Below are positions 51,823 through 61,405 of a stretch of DNA of 64,000 bases, in pieces (the stretch's first letter is position 1; every line of letters starts with the position of its first letter). Below the pieces are notes generated by a model. It worked only from the letters and a program-made list of their open reading frames with translations, did not search any database and was not told where the DNA came from. The DNA is from Candidatus Binatia bacterium (GTDB lineage: Bacteria > Desulfobacterota > Binatia > UBA9968). Location of the stretch: NCBI GenBank assembly GCA_036504975.1, contig DASXUF010000017.1, forward strand, positions 13,561-77,560. The letters are read 5' to 3'. Position numbers and translations under genes: made by a program.

Positions 51823-51867
51823 ATGCCGGCAAATGTTTCGCCACTCAAAGCGAAATGCGTGGGAGCC

Positions 51868-53886
51868 CTACTTTTTTTGGGACGCAGTACTCTCTTTTGG
51901 AACCGTCCGAAGTACCACACCTCGATCTCGTGCCCAACACTCCCTATCTGTCTCAGGGCACGCTGGACCTTCCTCACTGGTGATTGTAATGCGGTTGCTC
52001 TCAATACCTCCACGTGTTTGCAAGTAGTTGACAATACTTTCTGCCCTTTTAGACGGTAAATCCAAACTTTCCCCGGAAAGCGGATTTTGTCTCTTATACC
52101 AAACAACAAGTAAGCTATAATTTGGGTTTTGTTTAAAGAACATTGCGAGACGATCCAGAAGTTTTGCGGCATCCGGTTTCAAAGCAGTCTTGTCAAAATC
52201 AAACAACACAATGTTGTCAAGAATTACGGTACGTTCAATCTTAGGAGAGGGAGCGGCTTTTTTCGCCTGCTGCTCCACCTCTTCCAACCTCTTTGCCGCT
52301 TCTTCCGTTCTCCGCTGCACCTCGGCGACCTGTTTCTCAAATTGAGCAGCCCGCTGAACTTCGGGCTGTTGACCACCACCGGCAGCGGCTTTCCTTTGCA
52401 AGGCATTCAATTTTGCCAAGGTCATTGCAAGCTCTTCTTGAGCCACAACGAGATCTTTCGCCCGCATTGCGATACCCTGCTCTAACTTCGCTTGTTCAAC
52501 TGCCCTTAGTGCGGTTTGCCGCTGCAGATCAGCCTCCCTCTTTTGGAACAAGGATACACTAGTACCCAGAATAAGCATTATCGCAAAAATCGTCTTAAAA
52601 ACGGTTGGCACACGAAACCGCCGGCTCCTCCTTACTGCGCCCGCTACGCTGTCGTGACTAAGCTCATAATAAAATCCCTTCAGACCAGGGCGGGCCTCTT
52701 TTCGTATCAGCTTGGCATCGACAAGTGTTTTCAGCGCATTCTCCGAGATCCCGTATTGTTTACGAATCTGACCGTACTCCATGCTTATTCTGTGGCCGTC
52801 TGGACTCAGAAGTCCTAGTTCGCATAGACGTCGCGAGCGGCAACGCTGCCGAAAAGATGAGATCTCTCGCACAGCTTGACGGTAGAAATTTTCGAGGAGT
52901 TTTTCCATGTTCTTGGCGCCACCGAGCAATTGGTCATCAACCAGGATGTCTTTTGACCCTTCTTGCTGGCGGCGAAGAACCTGTTGCTCCGCGTGCTGGC
53001 AGATAATTTGAAGCTGAAACGGTTCCACTTCACCTTGTCGACTGGCCAGAAAAGCCATTATGCTGTCGAGCGTAGCTTTCTTATAACGAAAAGGCCGCGT
53101 CGCGAACACTTCAGGTAAGTCCAGAAGCGCCGGCTCAACCACGGCTCGTCGAGCCGCTTGCGTATCCAACGGTGTGAGACGAAATCGCTGCTCGAAGATT
53201 CCGGGAATATTCTGGACAAGTTGCTCCAGCGCTCCCACGTACTCTTCGCGGAAACTCAAGATAATCTTAATTTCTGGTGGCGAGTCCGCATAACGCCCGC
53301 GATCTGGCGAGGGCGGCTCCTTACGAATCCTTTCCGGTAAGCCTCGGCCGACAAGCTCCCCCAGTTGACGTGCGAGGGCGACGCGAACAGATTCCGACTG
53401 CAGATTGAATACCTCCTCGAATTGATCGAAGACCAGGACCGGTACCTGAAGCGTATCACCGCGCCATAAGTCCGTGGCCTTGAAAAATTCCCACAAACCT
53501 TCAGTTTTACGGTCGGTATAGTCAACCGCCTGTTCCTGACAGGTAGTTCGCAGCAACGCAAAAACAGCTTCAATGGGACCGATATCGGGTCGATCAAGCC
53601 GTATGCTTACGGGCAGTAGTCCGTACTCGCGGAGTCGTGGGAAAAGGCCTGCTCTTAGAAGAGATGTTTTTCCCAGACCCGATTTGCCGAAAATGACGAG
53701 CATGCGAGTCGCTCGAACCCGATGCACTAAATCGTAGATTTCCTGCTCGCGGCCAAAAAACAATCGTTGATCGAGTTCGTTGTCTTCGAAGTACCGTGGA
53801 CCGGGATATCGCTCGTGTGAGCCGGGCGTCAGAGACAAGACTGTTTCTTCTTCACGCTTCGCTATGGCGACCGCAGCTTTACTCAC
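51868..53886 (-). CDS. STAND-type P-loop NTPase with central TM helix, periplasmic coiled coil and C-terminal OmpA-like peptidoglycan-binding domain (island gene 4)
   Basis: 672 aa, GTG start 2 nt after the upstream stop. The N-terminal NTPase has Walker A (GKSGLGKTS) and Walker B (VLVFDQFEE) in an nSTAND/AAA_16-like context, preceded by the FGREQEI motif. A hydrophobic segment (VFKTIFAIMLILGTSVSLF) follows, then a Gln/Ala/Glu-rich coiled coil. The C-terminal ~100 aa (LFDFDKTALKPDAAKLLDRLAMFFKQNPNYSLLVV...SKRAESIVNYLQTRG) are OmpA_C-like. Low-GC segment. Confidence 0.55.
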   Translation of the reverse strand: MSKAAVAIAKREEETVLSLTPGSHERYPGPRYFEDNELDQRLFFGREQEIYDLVHRVRATRMLVIFGKSGLGKTSLLRAGLFPRLREYGLLPVSIRLDRPDIGPIEAVFALLRTTCQEQAVDYTDRKTEGLWEFFKATDLWRGDTLQVPVLVFDQFEEVFNLQSESVRVALARQLGELVGRGLPERIRKEPPSPDRGRYADSPPEIKIILSFREEYVGALEQLVQNIPGIFEQRFRLTPLDTQAARRAVVEPALLDLPEVFATRPFRYKKATLDSIMAFLASRQGEVEPFQLQIICQHAEQQVLRRQQEGSKDILVDDQLLGGAKNMEKLLENFYRQAVREISSFRQRCRSRRLCELGLLSPDGHRISMEYGQIRKQYGISENALKTLVDAKLIRKEARPGLKGFYYELSHDSVAGAVRRSRRFRVPTVFKTIFAIMLILGTSVSLFQKREADLQRQTALRAVEQAKLEQGIAMRAKDLVVAQEELAMTLAKLNALQRKAAAGGGQQPEVQRAAQFEKQVAEVQRRTEEAAKRLEEVEQQAKKAAPSPKIERTVILDNIVLFDFDKTALKPDAAKLLDRLAMFFKQNPNYSLLVVWYKRQNPLSGESLDLPSKRAESIVNYLQTRGGIESNRITITSEEGPACPETDRECWARDRGVVLRTVPKESTASQKK

Positions 53887-53888
53887 GA

Positions 53889-55211
53889 TCAGTCCCCTCT
53901 AATACGGTTCTGCCGCTTAACCCAGTTCGCCTGGATGTGACTCGCCAGGCGTTCCAGGCCATGTGGATCAGTCAGTTCAACACGCTGTAACTTATCCAGG
54001 CGTTCGAGTCCTAGGGACCCTTCCAAAATTGCAGGAATCAGAAAAGACTCGCCCTCATCGAATTCCTTTTGCCGCTCCAGTGCTTCCGCGATCTCTTTAT
54101 GGATATAACTCCGCGGTTTCGAAAGCATGTTCGGTGTTTGAAGTACAAGTACGTAGTCCACTTGCTTCCCCAGGACATGTACGATGCGTCTATTCCAATC
54201 ATCGCCACCGCGGAGATCCTGCTGGTCGCGCCATGTATCGACCCCGAGGCTATGTAATTTTTGCTCCACTTCCATCACCCGCTCTTGATCACGCCTATCG
54301 TAGCAAAGGAATACTTTGGGAGAGTTGGGCGGTATTTCCCGTACTACTGCCTGTGGAGCTTGTGCTTCGTAGAGCCGACGCAGCTCAGACGCAAAGTCGG
54401 ACCACGAATAATGCCGGAACTCGATCTTGTGCTCCTGGGTGAAAAACACTGCGCTTTGAGCGCTATCCGGGTGGTCGAAGAATGCAGCACCTTCTACCGC
54501 CAACGATCGATTACGATGGCGATACGTTTGCAAGACGTGAAGCAGCACACGCGCGTACCAGCGCTGAAAACCAAAACCAAGAAACAGAAACGACGTGCCA
54601 GGGTCGGCGAGCTGACCCGCGATATACGGCGGCAGAGGATGGGTACCTTTGATTATATTTACCAGGAATTCCAGCAAGTCGGTCTCTGTTAATACCAACG
54701 AATCTAGTTCCTTAAGATCGCCGTGGAGTTGATAGACGATTGGATGCTGAATAGTACCTTTGGAGAGACTCGTCGGCCGATGTTTCTGGTAATGGTAAAA
54801 GTCGTAAGTCGAAGATTTGTGGGCATCTTTCAAAGCGTTTACCATGAAGGGGACATAACTCATGCTCAAACAAAGTGTAAAAGGCAACGCAGCGAGATCT
54901 TCATGAAACCGCGAGGTACGCTTCGCAAACGGCGCATAGAAGTCCTTTACTTCCAGTTCCAGATCGTAGTGATCACCTCCGGGACTGTTGCAACGGAGCT
55001 GAGCCACCTGGGCTAAGTCCTTCCGAATGATATCTGGCGTATCTGCCGGCAGTTTTCGAGCCAGGTGTTGGGCGAGTTTGGTTGTGAGCGGGGTGTGATC
55101 AGGGTCGTCGGGATCAAAAACCATATCAGGTCCGCATACGAGGACACAGTTGCCCCGATTGATCGATTCAATTAAGCGGCGCCAGTCTTGTTCTGAAAGG
55201 CTATCTTTCAT
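53889..55211 (-). CDS. SIR2-like (SIR2_2/DHS-like) N-domain fused to a C-terminal TIR domain (island gene 3)
   Basis: 440 aa. The N-terminal ~250 aa match SIR2_2-type blocks (NCVLVCGPDMV ... HPIVYQLHGDLKELDSLVLTETDLLEFL ... SFLFLGFGFQ). The C-terminal ~140 aa form a TIR domain (KVFLCYDRRDQERVMEVEQKLHSLGVDTWRDQQDLRGGDDWNRRIVHVLGKQVDYVLVLQTPNMLSKPRSYIHKEIAEALER) with the conserved Glu context. Confidence 0.55.
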   Translation of the reverse strand: MKDSLSEQDWRRLIESINRGNCVLVCGPDMVFDPDDPDHTPLTTKLAQHLARKLPADTPDIIRKDLAQVAQLRCNSPGGDHYDLELEVKDFYAPFAKRTSRFHEDLAALPFTLCLSMSYVPFMVNALKDAHKSSTYDFYHYQKHRPTSLSKGTIQHPIVYQLHGDLKELDSLVLTETDLLEFLVNIIKGTHPLPPYIAGQLADPGTSFLFLGFGFQRWYARVLLHVLQTYRHRNRSLAVEGAAFFDHPDSAQSAVFFTQEHKIEFRHYSWSDFASELRRLYEAQAPQAVVREIPPNSPKVFLCYDRRDQERVMEVEQKLHSLGVDTWRDQQDLRGGDDWNRRIVHVLGKQVDYVLVLQTPNMLSKPRSYIHKEIAEALERQKEFDEGESFLIPAILEGSLGLERLDKLQRVELTDPHGLERLASHIQANWVKRQNRIRGD

Positions 55212-55271
55212 GTCAGAGTCTTTTTCTAGTCGGGTCGCAATTCCGTTTCAGGACAACTGCACCTAGAACAA

Positions 55272-56144
55272 CTAACTCAACGTTAGCTCGGCCTTTCCAA
55301 TTCCGCCGGCCGGAATTGTGACGGATATTTCAGATGCTTTGGGAGTACCGTTAATGATTCCTTCCGCCTTTACGACATGCACTCCAGGCGACAACTCTCG
55401 AAGAGCTGCGCTCTTACCGGTATAGTTGGCCGGACTTCCTCCGTCGATCGAGAGTTTCCAAACCGCCGCGCTCTGATCGCCATTCGTTACAGTTACGTTT
55501 AAACCTCCCAACTCGCTCACAGCCGCCTTTGCCCTCGCGGCCTCTTCTACTTGCTTCAAACTTTCCTGAAATTCGCGAATCCAAGTATTCGTCTCCTCTT
55601 GGACGACCGTTGTGACCTGATTAATAAAAGTCTTCGCCCGGCCCAGCATCGTTTGGACCTGGTCATCCGTCGGGTCTGATCCCTTCCAACCCGCTTTCAA
55701 GGTTTGCCATTCCAATTCGAACTCCCGTAGAAGCTGACGAATCCGCAGCTCCGCCGAAATGTAACGCATCCACCCGCTGGAAAAACCAAAGAAGCGGTCG
55801 ACTACGATCATCGCGGCGGCAATACCCAAAGACACGGAAGCCCATGCCGGCTGTATCAACGGCTTGCCGTCCTCAACAAAAATCTGAACTACCATCGGAA
55901 TAATTCCGGCCAGTGCTGTTAGAACGATTGCTCCCATTCGCGCCCGCATTGCCCATTGCTGTTTAGGTCGTTTTGCTTTCAAGTACCAATCTATAGCGCT
56001 TTTAGCCTCGGCCGTTAGGTGATCAAATAAAAGCTCAAGAGAATTCTGGCGCTTGCTAGGCTCCCATTCTAATTTAGGAAGTGGAGAATGTTGAATGTCC
56101 GTCCGCTTAGGCATTCCTGACTGTTTCCGCCTTATGGCAATCAA
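55272..56144 (-). CDS. SLATT-like 2-TM protein with C-terminal beta-rich (Ig/PEGA-like) domain (island gene 2)
   Basis: 290 aa. An amphipathic N-helix (AIDWYLKAKRPKQQW) is followed by two closely spaced TM helices (MGAIVLTALAGIIPMVV / VSLGIAAAMIVVDRFF). A helical segment follows (WMRYISAELRIRQLLREFELEW), as in SLATT pore-forming effector domains. The C-terminal ~90 aa are beta-rich. Confidence 0.4.
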   Translation of the reverse strand: MIAIRRKQSGMPKRTDIQHSPLPKLEWEPSKRQNSLELLFDHLTAEAKSAIDWYLKAKRPKQQWAMRARMGAIVLTALAGIIPMVVQIFVEDGKPLIQPAWASVSLGIAAAMIVVDRFFGFSSGWMRYISAELRIRQLLREFELEWQTLKAGWKGSDPTDDQVQTMLGRAKTFINQVTTVVQEETNTWIREFQESLKQVEEAARAKAAVSELGGLNVTVTNGDQSAAVWKLSIDGGSPANYTGKSAALRELSPGVHVVKAEGIINGTPKASEISVTIPAGGIGKAELTLS

Positions 56145-56324
56145 TCCTCAGCCTAGCTGGTTGGTTAGTAAAATAGGGCGAATTGTGGATTGGTGTCAAG
56201 ACGAAACAGGGATGATCCCGAATCAAATAATTTTTGCGTCGCTTTTGCTCCGTCTTTGAAGGACGACTCACTTTTCAAAACGGTAGCTTTGGAGGGCAGG
56301 TCAGTCAAAATAAGACGCTGCAAT

Positions 56325-57131
56325 CTACGCTTTTTGGAATCTGAGTTGCCCATCTCTAACCTCTGCCGAAAATTCTACAATTTGAAACGTAATATTCTCG
56401 CCGGTTACTTGGATTCCTAAATTATATAAACCATCCGGAAATTTATTAGGTCGCGATCTGTCGGCGTAAAAAATGACAAATTCTTTCTCATCTCCAGCCG
56501 CCTCAACCTTTCCAACGACGGTAATAAAGTTGCTCCCACCTGGATTTAAATCGAACGCTGTCCTGTAGGGAATGTCGTCATCTGATGGCCTGTCATGCAT
56601 CTGCCTGAGCGGAATAGGTAAGAATGGAACTCTATATTCTCTGACGTAAGCTAGCTCCACTTTGATGTTTTTTAGCACCACATCACTTAGATTTTTTATT
56701 TCAATTCGATGCATCCGTAGAAAAGCACCAGCCCAAACCTCATCTACTTGTTCATACGATCCTCCGACATCATGTAGAATTGCGACTTTAGCTGTTAACC
56801 GGTCCTCGAAATATTCGATGGTTTGGCGTTGCGAGATATCAATTAATACGGGAGTCGCAATGGTACGCACTAGAAAAAATCCCGCAGCAACTATCATGAA
56901 TGCCCCAAAAATCGATAGGGCAGGAATCACGACATCATCTGTTAGCTTAGGGATTTCCCATTCAAAGATATTTACCAAAAAATACCAGCCTATTACCGTG
57001 ACTAATGCCGTCTTGAGAACTGAGGCAAAGGATCCAAATATCCCTGTAACCGTATCCTTAAAAGCTTTCGCAAGAATCGTTCTCCAATATTGACCAAAGT
57101 GCTTGGCGAACTTCCAAGACAAAACCAGCAT
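56325..57131 (-). CDS. hypothetical integral membrane protein (island gene 1)
   Basis: Start placed at internal ATG (MLVLSWKF) with a GAAGGGGGG RBS. Three or four N-terminal TM helices then a ~170-aa soluble domain with no recognisable motifs. Lowest-GC gene of the island. Confidence 0.4.
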   Translation of the reverse strand: MLVLSWKFAKHFGQYWRTILAKAFKDTVTGIFGSFASVLKTALVTVIGWYFLVNIFEWEIPKLTDDVVIPALSIFGAFMIVAAGFFLVRTIATPVLIDISQRQTIEYFEDRLTAKVAILHDVGGSYEQVDEVWAGAFLRMHRIEIKNLSDVVLKNIKVELAYVREYRVPFLPIPLRQMHDRPSDDDIPYRTAFDLNPGGSNFITVVGKVEAAGDEKEFVIFYADRSRPNKFPDGLYNLGIQVTGENITFQIVEFSAEVRDGQLRFQKA

Positions 57132-57297
57132 ACCTGCCCCCCTTCCAATCGCGGGCAGTCTAGGACGTACCTCCGATTTAGGCAAACGATGGCGGAAACT
57201 ACTTTGGTCTCAAGTCCGACTTGATTACCAAAGCGTTGAGTCGGAGAGTGGCCTGAACTCTAGGTTTAAATTAGTTTTCTCCGGACTCGGATTGTCA

Positions 57298-58944
57298 TTA
57301 TCTGACGAGTTTTTTCCGCACCGCTTCCCGCAGATCCTTTTTGGAAATCTTTCCCACAGCAGTGGTCGGAAGCCGGTCTAGAATTTCCAGCCGCTCGGGT
57401 AGTTTAAATCTAGCGATGCGCTTCTCTTCCCGAAGGAAACTGCTGAGATCTTCTAGGGAAAGCGCCGCTCTCGGTCGAAGGACTACGCACGCGCAGGCCC
57501 GCTCGCCCAAGACCGCGTCAGGCATGGCGACAACGGCGGCGTTCAGCACGGCGGGATGGGAAAGAATCAAGCTTTCGACTTCTTCCGCGCTGATCTTTTC
57601 GCCGCCGCGGTTGATCGTGTCTTTCTTCCGGCCTTCCACGATCAAGTTGCCGCTCGGATGGCGCCGCACGAGATCGCCGGTGCGGTAGAAGCCGTCGGCG
57701 GTGAAGGCGGTCCGATTGTAGTCGTCGGCCTTATAGTATCCCCGGATGGTGTAAGGTCCGCGGCAAAGAAGCTCGCCGATTTCCCCGGGCGCGACTTCTT
57801 TTCCGTCATCATCGACGATTCTCGTCTCATCGTCCGCGCTGGCGGGCCTTCCCTGCGTTTCCAGAATGACCTCGATGGGATCGCTGCTGCGAGTCGCGCA
57901 GAGAAGCCCTTCCGCCATCCCATAGACTTGCGCCACGACTGGGCCGAAGGCTTTGCGCGCCAGCCGCGCCGGCTCGGCATGGAGGCGCGAGCCGCCGACG
58001 ATAAGAGTTTTGATCGAGGTCAAATCATAATGCGCTCGTCGAGAGTCGGCGAGCCAGGTGATCACCGAGGCCGGGACCGCCGGAATCCAGGTCACACGCT
58101 CGCTTTGCACCAGAGAGAAAACCGTCTCCGGCTCGGGCGACGGCGCAAGAACCACGCGCGCGCCCAGCAGCAGTGCTCCTTGTATTCCCGGGCAAGCGAG
58201 CGGGAAGTTGTGCGCGATCGGAACCGAAACGAGGATTACGGTTTCCCCGTCGAAGTCAGTGACGGCGGCGAACTGTTTCGAGTTGTACAGATAATCGTTG
58301 TGCGTCCGCGGAATGACCTTTGGAAGGCCCGTCGTCCCGCCGGAGAGTTGGAAGACGGCCGGGGCGTCGGGATCGGGCCGAAGCCGTTCCAGAGATTTTG
58401 CCGGGAGTCGATTTTCGATTGCATCGTCGAGGAGATCGGCGACCCGCGTCATGCCGCGTCCGGTGCGCTCTCCGACGACGAAAATCTCTCGGAGCGAGGG
58501 GAGCTTGTCGCGCAGCTCCTCGGCCATCGCCACGTAGTCGAAGTTTCTGAACTCCGACGGAATAAACCAGGCGGCCGCGCCCGTGAATCGCGCTAGATAC
58601 TCGATCTCCGCGTGCCTATGGGCGGGAAGACAAGCGAGCGGGATCGCGCCGACCTTTAGGCAGGCGAAGTAAGCGACAATAAACTCAAGGACGTTCGGAA
58701 GCTGGAAAACGACGCGTTTTCCGCCCGAGATCTCGCGCTCGGCGAGGTGAAGCGCGAACCTGTCAACCAGCACTCTTAACTCGCCGTACTTGACCCGGCG
58801 CTTTCCATCGACGACGGCGACTCGATCGGAATTCTTTTGGACCGACTGGTCAAAAGCCTCTCCGAGAGTCACGCCAGCCCAGTAACCGCGCTCACGGTAC
58901 AAGCGGGCAAAATCATCCGGCCATGGAACCGCTCCATTCAACAC
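57298..58944 (-). CDS. (2,3-dihydroxybenzoate)-AMP ligase-like aryl-acid adenylating enzyme (EntE/DhbE family, ANL superfamily)
   Basis: 548 aa. AMP-binding motif (LSGGTTGLPK), A8/A10 blocks (YRTGDLVRR ... GKISKK). The N-terminus resembles EntE (RLYRERGYW). Confidence 0.8.
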   Translation of the reverse strand: MLNGAVPWPDDFARLYRERGYWAGVTLGEAFDQSVQKNSDRVAVVDGKRRVKYGELRVLVDRFALHLAEREISGGKRVVFQLPNVLEFIVAYFACLKVGAIPLACLPAHRHAEIEYLARFTGAAAWFIPSEFRNFDYVAMAEELRDKLPSLREIFVVGERTGRGMTRVADLLDDAIENRLPAKSLERLRPDPDAPAVFQLSGGTTGLPKVIPRTHNDYLYNSKQFAAVTDFDGETVILVSVPIAHNFPLACPGIQGALLLGARVVLAPSPEPETVFSLVQSERVTWIPAVPASVITWLADSRRAHYDLTSIKTLIVGGSRLHAEPARLARKAFGPVVAQVYGMAEGLLCATRSSDPIEVILETQGRPASADDETRIVDDDGKEVAPGEIGELLCRGPYTIRGYYKADDYNRTAFTADGFYRTGDLVRRHPSGNLIVEGRKKDTINRGGEKISAEEVESLILSHPAVLNAAVVAMPDAVLGERACACVVLRPRAALSLEDLSSFLREEKRIARFKLPERLEILDRLPTTAVGKISKKDLREAVRKKLVR

Positions 58945-59051: not shown

Positions 59052-59291
59052 GTGAACAAGATCAACATTCACCAGGCAAAGACCCAGTTTTCCCGGCTCG
59101 TCGAGCGCGCCGCCGGAGGCGAAGAGATCGTCATCGCCAAGTCGGGCAAACCAATCGCCCGCTTGGTTCCTTATACCGCGCGGAACGAGCCCCGCCGGCC
59201 CGGGTACCTGCGCGGGAAGATCCGCGTCAAGAAGACATTTGATCGAGCTCTCCCAAAAAAGCTGCTGGCATCCTTTGAAGGTAAATCCTGA
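59052..59291 (+). CDS. type II antitoxin, Phd/YefM family
   Basis: 79 aa with the N-terminal Phd-like motif (INIHQAKTQFSRLVERAAGGEEIVIAKSGKPIARLVP). Stop overlaps the toxin start. Confidence 0.7.
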   Translation: MNKINIHQAKTQFSRLVERAAGGEEIVIAKSGKPIARLVPYTARNEPRRPGYLRGKIRVKKTFDRALPKKLLASFEGKS

Positions 59292-59294
59292 GCC

Positions 59295-59690
59295 GTGGTG
59301 CTGCTCCTCGATACCCACGTCCTGATCTGGTGGTTGGCAGACGACCGCAGGCTAAGCAAGGACGCACGCAACTTAATCGCCGACGCCCATCACCGGGTGC
59401 TCGTTAGCGCCGCGTCCGTCTGGGAGATTGCCATCAAATCCGCTCTAAAAAGGATTGAAATCGAACTCGACGACCTGGAGGACGCGATTCTCAAAAGCGG
59501 ATTCGAGCCTTTGCCGATCGCCCTGCTACATGCCGTCCGAGTCGGTCGACTGCCAGATGTTCACCGTGATCCGTTCGACCGCATGCTGGTAGCTCAAGCC
59601 GGCGTCGAAGAACTGCGGCTAGTCACTCATGATCGAGTATTCGAGCGCTACGGTCTGACCGCCGAAGGCCTGCCACCCATTTTCGTTTGA
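59295..59690 (+). CDS. vapC: type II toxin VapC (PIN domain RNase)
   Basis: 131 aa, GTG start. PIN acidic residues (LLLDTHVLIWW ... SVWEIAIK ... LVTHD). Confidence 0.8.
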   Translation: MVLLLDTHVLIWWLADDRRLSKDARNLIADAHHRVLVSAASVWEIAIKSALKRIEIELDDLEDAILKSGFEPLPIALLHAVRVGRLPDVHRDPFDRMLVAQAGVEELRLVTHDRVFERYGLTAEGLPPIFV

Positions 59691-59726: not shown

Positions 59727-60953
59727 TTGATGAGATCGCTGATGCTGGTGTTGGCCCTGATCGTGCTCGGGGTCGTGTTGGCGCCACAAATGGTGCAGGC
59801 CCAGGCTCCGGCAAGGATCGGATTCATCTATCCCGACAGCGGGCCGTTCGCTCAGCTCGGCCTCGATATGCGCGACGGCTTCCTGCTTTACTGGAGCGAA
59901 GTCGGAAGCCGGGCCGGCGGCCGACCGGTGGAGTTGGTGCTCGAGACCAAGGGGACCAGCAAGCCCGACGAAGGGTTGACCAAGGCGCGGAAGCTGGTGG
60001 AGCGGGACCGGGTTCAGATCCTTGGCGGGATCATCTCGACTCCCGTTGCCTATGCGCTGCGGGGAGACGTGATCGAAAACAAAATTCCCATCGTAATTAT
60101 GCATGCAGGCGCCGATGGGCTCACACAGAGGCAGAAGAGCGACTACGTCTTTCGCTCGTCCTTCGTCAACAGCGACTCGTCGCACCCGCTGGGCGAATGG
60201 GCCTATAAGCAGGGCTATCGGAAAATGGCGCTCGCGGCTTCCGACTTCAGCGCCGGCTACGAGCACATCGGGGGCATCGCTCGCACCTTCACGGACGCGG
60301 GCGGGCAGGTCATCCAGGAGATCTACCCGCCGCTCGGGGCGCCGGACTTTGCGCCCTATCTGACTCAGATCAAACGCGAGGCCGACGTGGTGGCTGCGTT
60401 CTTCGGCGGCGCCGACGCGCTTCGCTTCGTCAGCCAGTACGCCGAATTTGGGCTGAAAGGCAAGATACCGCTGATCGGCAAAGGCCTGACCGACGAGAGC
60501 CTCCTTCTTAAGCAAGGGGACGCAGCCATCGATCTCATCACCGCATGGCACTGGAGCGCGGCGCTCGACACCCCGGCCAATAAGCGGTTCATCGACGCGT
60601 ATGCATCCAAATATAAGCGCCCGGCCACGACGTACGCCGAGCATGGGTACGTGGGAGCGCTGATGATGGCGAAAGCCCTGGAGACGGTGAAAGGTAACGT
60701 CGAAAATCAGACCGTGTTTCTCGACGCGCTCCGCCGCGTCGAGGCCGATGCCCCGCGCGGCAAGATGAAGCTCGACGCCTATCACGCGCCGATCCACACG
60801 GTCTACGTCCTGAAGGTCGAGAAGAAAGGCGGCGCGCTCCAGAACGTTCCCATCGCCAGCTATCCCAATACCAATCAGTTCTGGAAATGGAATCCGGATG
60901 CATTCACGAAACTGACGCCGTATGGTGAGCTAAAAGGAAAGTGGGCGAAGTAA
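59727..60953 (+). CDS. branched-chain-amino-acid-type ABC substrate-binding protein (LivK/Peripla_BP_6 family)
   Basis: 408 aa. Signal peptide (MMRSLMLVLALIVLGVVLAPQMVQAQA) and the type I periplasmic binding fold pattern (RIGFIYPDSGPFAQLG). Confidence 0.8.
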   Translation: MMRSLMLVLALIVLGVVLAPQMVQAQAPARIGFIYPDSGPFAQLGLDMRDGFLLYWSEVGSRAGGRPVELVLETKGTSKPDEGLTKARKLVERDRVQILGGIISTPVAYALRGDVIENKIPIVIMHAGADGLTQRQKSDYVFRSSFVNSDSSHPLGEWAYKQGYRKMALAASDFSAGYEHIGGIARTFTDAGGQVIQEIYPPLGAPDFAPYLTQIKREADVVAAFFGGADALRFVSQYAEFGLKGKIPLIGKGLTDESLLLKQGDAAIDLITAWHWSAALDTPANKRFIDAYASKYKRPATTYAEHGYVGALMMAKALETVKGNVENQTVFLDALRRVEADAPRGKMKLDAYHAPIHTVYVLKVEKKGGALQNVPIASYPNTNQFWKWNPDAFTKLTPYGELKGKWAK

Positions 60954-60957
60954 ACTA

Positions 60958-61405
60958 CAAGGATGAAGTATGAAGGATGAAGGCGGAAGGTTCAGGGCTT
61001 TGCGTTTTTCCCTCTCAATTTCGTTTTGTTTACAATACTCACGAAGATAGCCAGCAGTTCATTTGTTTCGTTCTTTATTGGGATCAATTCCTTCGCATCT
61101 ACAAGCTCGGATTCGCCTAGAAGCTCCAACAGTAGAAGCTTTCCTCTAACTCCTGTAATCCGCCCTCGATCTTACTTATAAAATCCGCATCGGATTTGGC
61201 TCTTTGAGCTTCGCGATAATGTGCCCCAACGGAAGTTCCAGATCGAAGCATTTGATGCCCCAAAATTTGCGCTTCGACTCTCTTGGGTAATGTTGCATAG
61301 AGCCGGATGATCGCTAATGCAAAATCTTTCGTCCTTGTTTTTAGACCCTATCCATTTTCATCCTTTTAGCTGCCGTTGTCCTTCATCCTTCCGCCTTCAT
61401 CCTTG
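60958..61405. repeat. imperfect terminal inverted repeats built from GGATGAAG-type heptamers, flanking a decayed four-helix-bundle gene
   Basis: Left end caaggatgaagtatgaaggatgaaggcggaagg (60958..60990) and right end ccttcatccttccgccttcatccttg (61380..61405) are reverse complements at their tips. The GC-poor interior of about 390 bp carries the pseudogene below. Confidence 0.5.
60992..61340 (-). pseudogene. decayed four-helix-bundle protein gene (TIGR02436-like, the family found in 23S rRNA intervening sequences)
   Basis: Minus-strand translation gives ...KDFALAIIRLYATLPKRVEAQILGHQMLRSGTSVGAHYREAQRAKSDADFISKIEGGLQELEESFY and then, after a -1 shift, WLELLGESELVDAKELIPIKNETNELLAIFVSIVN. This matches the ...IYxLTxxFPKxExYGLxSQxRRAAxSIxxNIAEG...FL.IA.GS..E... 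signature. No in-frame start codon after an upstream TAG. Confidence 0.4.

Follow-up and report, generated by a model that had tools for sequence, protein, structure and literature searches.

We analyzed a 64-kb window (64,000 nucleotides, the whole stretch of DNA considered here) of a Candidatus Binatia metagenome-assembled genome, in which a block of four open reading frames (ORFs) occupies positions 51868-57185 of the minus strand. The metagenome gene caller agrees with these ORFs on the source contig, the same genes being called on JGI contig Ga0376053_0005096. Gene 1 (51868-53886, 672 amino acids (aa)) encodes an nSTAND1 NTPase with an OmpA domain, and gene 2 (53889-55211, 440 aa) a SIR2_2 domain joined to a TIR_2 domain. 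Gene 3 (55272-56114 from an ATG start, 280 aa, or to 56144 from a TTG, 290 aa) encodes a SLATT_2 protein, and gene 4 (56325-57131 from an ATG, 268 aa, or to 57185 from a TTG, 286 aa) matches no family. Only 2 nt separate gene 2 from gene 1, and the other gaps measure 60 nt and 180-210 nt. The block is bounded by the stop codon of a FAD monooxygenase gene (51822) and by that of an EntE-like ligase gene (57298). An earlier note on this DNA had described the four minus-strand genes, the 2-nt gap, and both boundaries, and the ORF list and the metagenome gene calls confirm them. Domain calls were made with Pfam, all above the curated cut-offs, and with the further model sets NCBIfam, PADLOC 2023 (hidden Markov models, HMMs), and PHROGs. 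The TIR, SIR2-like, SLATT, STAND, and OmpA assignments of the note are all upheld by these profile searches.

The composition of the block sets it apart from its surroundings. Its GC content is 0.496, compared with 0.585 and 0.592 in the flanks, making it the lowest-GC 5.3-kb stretch within the window, ≈3 standard deviations under the mean. At third codon positions (GC3), the block genes range from 0.40 to 0.54 and the neighboring genes from 0.65 to 0.80. The lowest GC inside the block is found in gene 4 (0.42) and in the OmpA module of gene 1 (0.444). The local values given previously are exact (0.30 at 52081-52140 and 0.383 at 56401-56460), but the flanks had been put at ≈0.65 and are in fact at 0.585-0.59. 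We speak of an insertion on the grounds of composition and synteny only, as there is no tRNA within the window, no direct repeat above chance flanking the block, and no integrase among the window ORFs. A search for Rfam families likewise returned none in the 48-64 kb portion of the window. The locus is a real, horizontally acquired conflict locus. The proposal of a horizontally acquired insertion stands as far as the foreign composition is concerned, but synteny with a sister contig, described below, reveals a composite block rather than one insertion. It splits into three parts: a two-gene core formed by genes 2 and 1, an older SLATT gene, and an unrelated inserted gene 4.

The two genes of the core are the conserved unit. 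The SIR2-like/TIR protein has at least 296 homologs of ≈440 aa with the same architecture. A genome survey restricted to one genome per species yielded 47 loci, which together with three closer metagenomic relatives give 50 core loci other than that of the window. The 47 loci are distributed patchily over at least eight phyla, with representatives in the Desulfobacterota, Nitrospirota, Verrucomicrobiota, Pseudomonadota, Acidobacteriota, Bacteroidota/Chlorobi, Gemmatimonadota, Omnitrophota, and Clostridia. An nSTAND1 gene lies immediately 3′ of the SIR2-like/TIR gene in 45 of these 47 loci, mostly with a spacing of 0-60 nt; one of the two exceptions is truncated by a contig end, and the other has a fragmented SIR2-like/TIR gene. 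The same pair is present in all three close metagenomic relatives (61-66% identity), for a total of 48 of 50. The pair is strictly co-localized across phyla and not scattered, in line with the linkage that the earlier note had proposed for these two genes. A Pfam scan of the ORFs around the core loci (117 upstream, 106 downstream) revealed no conserved third gene, and HMMs of the SLATT clade and of the gene-4 family have no match in the 50 other core loci. With gene 4 also a separate insertion (see below), the single four-gene system that had been suggested is not supported. From its domains and motifs, the core appears to be a widespread, putative anti-phage module of two genes, in which a candidate TIR enzyme on a dead SIR2 fold is paired with a membrane-spanning, NLR-like ATPase.

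Three Competibacteraceae loci carry a long ORF (≈1,040-1,310 aa) directly 5′ of the SIR2-like/TIR gene (L009 2800-6726, L017 4589-7714, and L019 3801-7742). The ORF in L017 is confirmed as a second nSTAND1 gene, and the Pfam scan of upstream ORFs found three nSTAND1 members in all. This arrangement may be a three-gene variant, or it may consist of tandem systems.

Gene 2 fuses a degenerate SIR2-like domain (aa 1-290; Pfam SIR2_2, E = 2e-10, 41.4 bits against a cut-off of 24.5) to a TIR domain (aa ≈296-425; Pfam TIR_2, E = 4.8e-16, 59.8 bits against a cut-off of 28). The AlphaFold model of the protein has a pLDDT of 87.9, and its best Foldseek matches are the SIR2 domains of ThsA, KomC, DSR2, and Avs5 (E = 8e-12 to 1e-6). 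When the family profile is aligned to ThsA (6lhx and 8bto), "TTPD" falls opposite "TTNYD" and "L-Y-G" opposite "M-H-G", which places Pro or Tyr at the Asn position and Tyr or Phe at the His position. The two ThsA residues, N112 and H152, are reportedly catalytic according to mutant data; a catalytic role of the SIR2 histidine is also indicated by the PDB entries of DSR2 H171A and KomC H146N. Among 151 family members, the N112 position is never Asn and is Pro in 119; at the H152 position, 143 members have Tyr or Phe and just one, the window protein, has His. The SIR2 GAGxS loop reads G-P/A-D in the family. As modeled, the N-terminal domain has a SIR2 fold without the residues that these SIR2 NADases require. 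The earlier description of the domain as NADase-type is thus not borne out, and its candidacy as an NADase effector was rejected for the loss of the catalytic motif. The TIR domain, by contrast, has its Glu373 in 151 of 151 members, and its profile matches in the PDB include Cat1, AbTIR, and the SARM1 TIR. Because the TIR glutamate is invariant while the SIR2 catalytic residues have been lost, the TIR domain is likely to be the enzyme of gene 2, presumably an NADase, and the SIR2 fold likely serves as a scaffold or adaptor.

The window protein has an oddity of its own at this site. Its His163 (54723-54725) is the sole histidine at the catalytic "HG" position, where the other members have Tyr, Phe, Leu, Cys, or Ser, and the catalytic Asn is absent there too.

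Gene 1 contains an nSTAND1 module (PF20703, aa 27-414, E = 3.5e-29, 103 bits against a cut-off of 27) and an OmpA domain (PF00691, aa 561-638, E = 4.6e-10, 40.2 bits against a cut-off of 27.2). The Walker A (GxSGxGKTS) and Walker B (hhhDQFEE) motifs are invariant in 41 relatives, and the NTPase looks active. A transmembrane (TM) helix is encoded directly 3′ of the NTPase module, at 52555-52611 on the minus strand (aa 426-444, hydropathy peak 1.8-2.0). Of the 40 partners whose length suffices to reveal such a helix, 38 have the same layout, an NTPase module of ≈430 aa and then a single hydrophobic helix. Lysine and arginine residues average 5.5 in the 15-residue stretch that precedes the helix and 2.6 beyond it; the preceding side is the richer one in 38 of 39 proteins, and no signal peptide was found. 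This charge bias without a signal peptide indicates an N-in/C-out topology, in which the NTPase would be cytoplasmic and the C-terminal domain would lie outside.

The part of the chain beyond the helix is variable. The C-termini of the partners carry TPR repeats in 19 of 40 cases and an FGE-sulfatase domain (C-type-lectin fold) in nine of 40, the latter including all of the closest relatives. Directly 3′ of the nSTAND1-FGE-sulfatase gene of a 66%-identical relative is a bAvd and reverse-transcriptase pair, that is, a diversity-generating retroelement (DGR; L052 4182-5618). In gene 1, the helix is followed by a coiled-coil-like linker and then by a divergent OmpA/Pal-like module (51871-52251, minus strand, aa 546-672) that is predicted to be periplasmic; according to Pfam, no other partner chain has an OmpA domain. 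The best match of the module is Escherichia coli Pal (2hqs, E = 1.3e-10). The Pal segment "GHADERG" aligns to "WYKRQNP", with Asp replaced by Arg, and the Pal segment "RRA" aligns to "KRA", with the Arg kept. In Pal and OmpA, this Asp/Arg pair binds diaminopimelate. Peptidoglycan binding by the module seems plausible but uncertain. Its lower GC (0.444, with a GC3 of 0.39, compared with a GC of 0.53 in the NTPase part) suggests that it was acquired separately from the rest of gene 1 and swapped in. The earlier note had assigned to the OmpA-like domain the role of an anchor. An anchoring role may stand, but the domain would be more than a mere anchor, because in relatives the same slot holds the FGE-sulfatase/lectin or TPR domains; it occupies the variable extracytoplasmic position of the family, which would be the place of a sensor. 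Gene 1 would accordingly act as both sensor and switch of the core.

A distant Bacteroidota relative encodes a separate OmpA-family protein (Pfam E = 4e-24) just 3′ of its nSTAND1-TPR gene (L036 12424-13329). This is a second association of the system with an OmpA-like domain, here in trans; among all the downstream ORFs scanned with Pfam, two were OmpA members.

Gene 3 is a clear SLATT protein (Pfam SLATT_2, PF18183, E = 1.8e-20, 74 bits against a cut-off of 25; NCBIfam SLATT_2, NF033633, E = 7e-41, 139.7 bits against 40) with TM helices at aa 72-90 and 97-115. Its clade comprises 91 homologs of conserved length with a conserved C-terminal beta domain. Gene 2, which bears the TIR domain, begins 60 nt 3′ of the window SLATT gene, and SLATT is probably co-transcribed with the core. 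A promoter-like site at 56170-56199 on the minus strand (TTGACA and TATTTT at a distance of 18 nt) lies 56 nt 5′ of the SLATT ATG. It scores 10/12 in a consensus scan, and both hexamers are kept in the sister contig L053, where synteny resumes just upstream; we regard the site as suggestive only.

SLATT adjoins a TIR, SIR2, or STAND gene in seven of 41 non-redundant clade loci that have at least 1.5 kb of flank, and in six of 31 with at least 2.5 kb. SLATT is followed by TIR-AAA_35 and AAA_35-WD40 genes in L053, by a TIR-WD40 gene in L057, by a TIR-nSTAND1 gene in L115, and by SIR2 and nSTAND1-WD40 genes in L081 (5780-8508). It comes last in L059 (2-4967), after SIR2 and nSTAND1-WD40 genes, and in L080 and L121, each time after an nSTAND1-WD40 gene. 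The SIR2 protein of L081 keeps its GAGAS, TNYD, and HG motifs. Some other SLATT-clade homologs stand alone among small mobile-element genes. From these comparisons, SLATT is probably an optional second membrane effector, a predicted pore that would respond to the output of a TIR or SIR2 protein. The view, put forward in the earlier note, that SLATT acts as membrane effector together with a TIR/STAND module thereby gains comparative support, both from the seven clade loci and from the occurrence of the same SLATT gene before two different cassettes, as described next. Loci L081 and L059 also represent a sibling three-gene arrangement in their own right, with a stand-alone SIR2 in place of TIR and intact-looking catalytic motifs.

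The history of the block can be read by comparison with L053, a soil-metagenome contig whose SLATT gene is 83.5% identical to the window copy in nucleotides and ≈88-89% in amino acids. Synteny between the two (blastn, 79-90% nucleotide identity) covers the ABC-transporter binding-protein gene, the EntE-like ligase gene, SLATT together with 100 nt 5′ of it, and the 3′ terminus of the FAD monooxygenase gene. The breakpoints of the swap are the stop codons of SLATT and of the FAD monooxygenase gene, and between them the two contigs carry unrelated DNA: genes 2 and 1 in the window, and the TIR-AAA_35 and AAA_35-WD40 genes in L053. The exchangeable cassette of the window (51823-55278) thus contains exactly genes 2 and 1. 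For SLATT, the comparison of window and L053 gives a dN/dS of 0.10 and a dS of 0.59, and for the flanking genes a dN/dS of 0.07-0.13 and a dS of 0.55-0.71. Because its values match those of the flanks, SLATT has been inherited together with them under purifying selection. At this site, SLATT predates the present cassette, and its partner cassette has been exchanged.

Gene 4 is an independent insertion, unrelated to the system. In L053, a mere 58 nt stand in for the segment that contains it (56214-57311, 1.1 kb). The protein belongs to none of the families of Pfam, NCBIfam, PADLOC, or PHROGs, the last giving only weak, unannotated matches. A word-indexed search retrieved only gene 4 itself, and an exhaustive search retrieved 80 remote relatives of similar size, with two TM helices, a stalk helix, and a beta domain of ≈150 aa. 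The model (pLDDT 92) shows an Ig-like beta-sandwich. In the PDB, a profile search found nothing, and a fold search found only generic Ig-like sandwiches with E > 1e-3. Matches to viral structures were weak (TM-score ≤0.37) and were not used as evidence. Three homologs are solitary, located between housekeeping or toxin-antitoxin genes without SLATT or TIR nearby, and the gene-4 family HMM has no match in 135 core or SLATT loci. We also considered the 287-aa ORF that lies 5′ of SLATT in L053 as a counterpart of gene 4; the two have no similarity, and the ORF corresponds to the 3′ portion of the EntE-like ligase gene.

The metagenome annotation further contains a 62-aa ORF between gene 4 and SLATT (56165-56353, minus strand), which is probably no gene because it overlaps the promoter-like region and the breakpoint of the gene-4 insertion.

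We compared the locus with described systems. The PADLOC 2023 models and NCBIfam point to no named system and return only generic matches to TIR and ThsA-SIR2 domains, and a literature search found no paper containing "SIR2-TIR" or "TIR-SIR2". The nSTAND1 clade was named by Kaur, Iyer, Burroughs & Aravind (2021), who computationally predicted STAND-FGS systems with TIR and other effectors (PMC8195603). In the neighborhood file of that study, the string "nSTAND1+TM" occurs 412 times, and there are rows like "TIR+DrHyd-> nSTAND1+TPR"; neither "SIR2+TIR" nor "OmpA" appears in it. Dore et al. (2024) showed nSTAND1-lectin proteins to be DGR targets and predicted some of the sensor domains to be periplasmic (PMC10907252). 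The claim of an undescribed system therefore holds insofar as the models map it to no named system, but the general kind, nSTAND1 with or without a TM helix, with a variable sensor and an adjacent or fused TIR, is already cataloged computationally (PMC8195603). Only the particular combination is new, namely a dead SIR2-TIR protein and an nSTAND1-TM-OmpA protein beside SLATT. With the cataloged nSTAND1 systems, the core shares the NTPase clade with intact Walker A and B motifs, a variable C-terminal sensor (FGS, TPR, or beta-propeller) that often follows a TM helix, an occasional DGR neighbor, and a TIR effector, which in those systems is fused to the NTPase or encoded in an adjacent gene and here is adjacent, 2 nt upstream. 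Unlike in those systems, however, the core effector is a separate protein with its TIR domain on a catalytically dead SIR2 fold, no shared adaptor (EAD or Death-like) domain joins the core proteins, and the window copy is set apart by its OmpA-like outside domain and by the neighboring SLATT gene.

The note had excluded Thoeris, Avs, DSR, and SIR2-HerA, and we agree, features of each being missing here. In the single-chain TIR-NLR validated by Rousset et al. (2022; PMC9122126) and in Avs proteins (surveyed in PMC12803255), a STAND module with a C-terminal sensor controls a NAD-directed TIR or SIR2 effector, and binding of the trigger leads to oligomerization and abortive infection, a logic that the core could share. 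Those proteins are single cytoplasmic chains (effector-STAND-repeats) that bind phage proteins intracellularly, whereas the core has its effector in a separate gene and its sensor slot beyond a TM helix, predicted to be outside the cytoplasm; no Avs model in PADLOC or NCBIfam matches. Thoeris offers the nearest relative of the N-terminal domain of gene 2, the ThsA SIR2, in both sequence and fold, and it also includes a TIR. In gene 2, however, SIR2 has lost both its catalytic Asn and its catalytic His, a fused TIR takes the place of the SLOG domain of ThsA, ThsB is not encoded separately, and a STAND partner is obligatory; the PADLOC matches to ThsA and ThsB are partial and at the level of domains (E = 4e-9 and 1e-3). 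The SIR2 NADases of DSR, SIR2-HerA, Avs5, and KomC share the fold, but the gene 2 family lacks the catalytic His (H171 in DSR2, H146 in KomC) in 150 of 151 members, and no HerA or other such partner occurs in the neighborhood.

SLATT proteins were reportedly described by Burroughs et al. in 2015 as two-TM effectors of nucleotide-signaling conflict systems. The window protein resembles such effectors in being a SLATT_2 protein with two TM helices encoded beside a putative nucleotide- or NAD-processing enzyme, as in the GAP1-N1 systems in which Kaur et al. (2020) found SLATT genes beside TIR/PNPase effectors (PMC7159879) and in RT-SLATT DRT10 (bioRxiv 10.64898/2026.04.29.721553). Its clade differs from them in the conserved C-terminal beta domain, in having no cyclase or reverse transcriptase, and in its facultative pairing with TIR or intact SIR2 and STAND NTPases. 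The bitopic envelope proteins of the MotB/Pal and PknB types are single-pass, N-in/C-out proteins in which the cytoplasmic part is an enzyme or an anchor and the periplasmic domain faces the wall. Gene 1 would have this topology in common with them, and Pal is the closest solved relative of its C-terminal domain, but its cytoplasmic part is a 425-aa STAND NTPase and its canonical peptidoglycan-binding Asp is replaced.

Taken together, we consider it somewhat probable that the locus encodes a two-gene, NLR-like module in which a sensor that spans the membrane activates a TIR NADase and SLATT is an optional second effector. The outside domain of gene 1 would be altered by a cue from the envelope or periplasm; for the OmpA variant, this cue might be a disturbance of peptidoglycan during phage entry. 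The cytoplasmic nSTAND1 NTPase would then oligomerize and cluster its SIR2-like/TIR partners, so that their TIR domains form active NADase sites. These would deplete NAD+ and/or make an ADP-ribose-derived product, and the infected cell would be stopped by growth arrest, in the manner of abortive infection. SLATT, where present, would act as a membrane pore answering the TIR or SIR2 output. In this genome, the FGE-sulfatase- or TPR-type outside domain would have been replaced by a coiled-coil stalk and a divergent Pal/OmpA-like domain. Several points weigh against this account. SLATT occurs in none of the 50 other core loci, ≈80% of the SLATT-clade loci have no TIR or STAND neighbor, and SLATT may simply be a neighboring gene. 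The promoter-like site is at chance level, as a promoter scan over the region is not enriched compared with shuffled sequence. Binding to the wall is uncertain because, of the canonical peptidoglycan-binding pair, the Asp is missing from the OmpA-like domain. Finally, what the analysis shows is the domain identities and motif states, the strict gene pairing, the conserved TM helix and its charge bias, the cassette swap, and the purifying selection on SLATT; we infer the topology, the trigger, the NADase activity, the coupling of SLATT, and the defensive role itself, the first three of these from sequence only.

The main rival explanation, which we find doubtful, is that three independent elements have piled up at a hotspot, where SLATT would act alone beside whichever TIR-STAND cassette lands and the system would strictly be one of two genes. 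It accommodates the restriction of SLATT to the window among the core loci, the solitary members of the SLATT clade among mobile-element genes together with the majority that have no TIR or STAND neighbor, the promoter-like site of SLATT itself, which is conserved, and a cassette swap that ends exactly at the SLATT stop codon. TIR, SIR2, and STAND-type genes are rare in genomes, however, and seven independent, non-redundant loci besides the window have a SLATT-clade gene next to TIR, intact SIR2, or nSTAND1/AAA_35, with spacings of -3 to 60 nt and in differing gene orders. SLATT also co-occurs with such genes in other systems (Kaur et al. 2020; PMC7159879). That all four genes form one system, in which SIR2/TIR makes or depletes a NAD signal, SLATT kills, STAND senses, OmpA anchors, and gene 4 is a further component, is suggested by their common orientation, close spacing, shared low-GC block, and conflict-system domains. 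We think it very unlikely, given that the gene-4 segment is missing from the sister genome and has a distinct GC of 0.42, that gene-4 relatives are solitary and absent from the 135 core or SLATT loci, and that the SIR2 catalytic residues are gone.

The loss of the SIR2 residues also bears on a reading of gene 2 as Thoeris in one chain, in which TIR would make a cyclic ADP-ribose signal and the fused SIR2 would act as NADase effector. The ThsA SIR2 is the best sequence and fold match of the N-terminal domain, and the window protein alone has a His at the "HG" position; the catalytic Asn is nevertheless absent in every member, the window protein included, the His is absent in the 150 others, the GAGxS loop has become G-P/A-D, and Pfam detects no SLOG or Macro signal-binding domain. 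We disfavor this reading and give it hardly any weight. It is also improbable, if slightly less so, that the module has nothing to do with immunity and belongs to ordinary physiology, as an envelope-stress or cell-wall signaling device with a STAND switch tethered to peptidoglycan. The OmpA/Pal-like domain and the predicted membrane topology do resemble those of envelope proteins, and one distant relative has a separate OmpA gene 3′ of the core. The foreign composition, the patchy phyletic spread, the hypervariable C-termini (one of them linked to a DGR), the replacement of the cassette between sister genomes, and a TIR domain whose catalytic Glu is intact all point instead to a conflict system.

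What makes the locus most interesting is a sensor position predicted to face outward, a dead SIR2 domain as likely scaffold, and the arrangement of a constant SLATT with a swappable cassette. Known bacterial STAND and NLR-like defenses sense phage proteins inside the cell; a sensor beyond a membrane helix would, if true, place detection at the envelope, either ahead of genome entry or while it takes place, and the core would provide a clonable two-gene model of how a TIR enzyme is activated across a membrane. The dead SIR2 fold on TIR would be an enzyme domain recycled as a scaffold. The sister genomes offer a natural experiment, in which SLATT was kept under purifying selection and the TIR-STAND cassette was exchanged, and they make the idea of a constant effector with a swappable sensor testable. 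In a broader and more tentative proposal, the family as a whole would consist of transmembrane NLR-like receptors that pass extracytoplasmic cues to a cytoplasmic TIR domain, with SLATT as a plug-in effector retained while cassettes swap. The cues would be phage particles or other antigens captured by DGR-diversified lectin or TPR domains, or the state of the peptidoglycan in the OmpA variant, and such receptors would parallel, in bacteria, the logic of Toll-like receptors, with a STAND switch as the basis. We regard this extension as possible.

Other features of the neighborhood were noted during the comparison with L053. A Phd/YefM-like antitoxin and PIN (VapC) toxin pair is encoded 1.8 kb to the right of the block (window 59052-59690). 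The pair is missing from L053, in which 190 nt (L053 2084-2274) correspond to 856 nt of the window; for this neighborhood, it is the second indel that involves a small mobile module. The EntE-like ligase gene is called as short ORFs (45, 119, and 287 aa) in L053 (2273-3807), although its DNA aligns along the entire window gene, and may be a frameshifted pseudogene or reflect an assembly error. Finally, a further GC dip (0.44-0.47) lies in the intergenic region to the right of the ABC-transporter binding-protein gene (window 60800-61400); the region is conserved in L053, and a 23S_rRNA_IVP-family gene is called near there.

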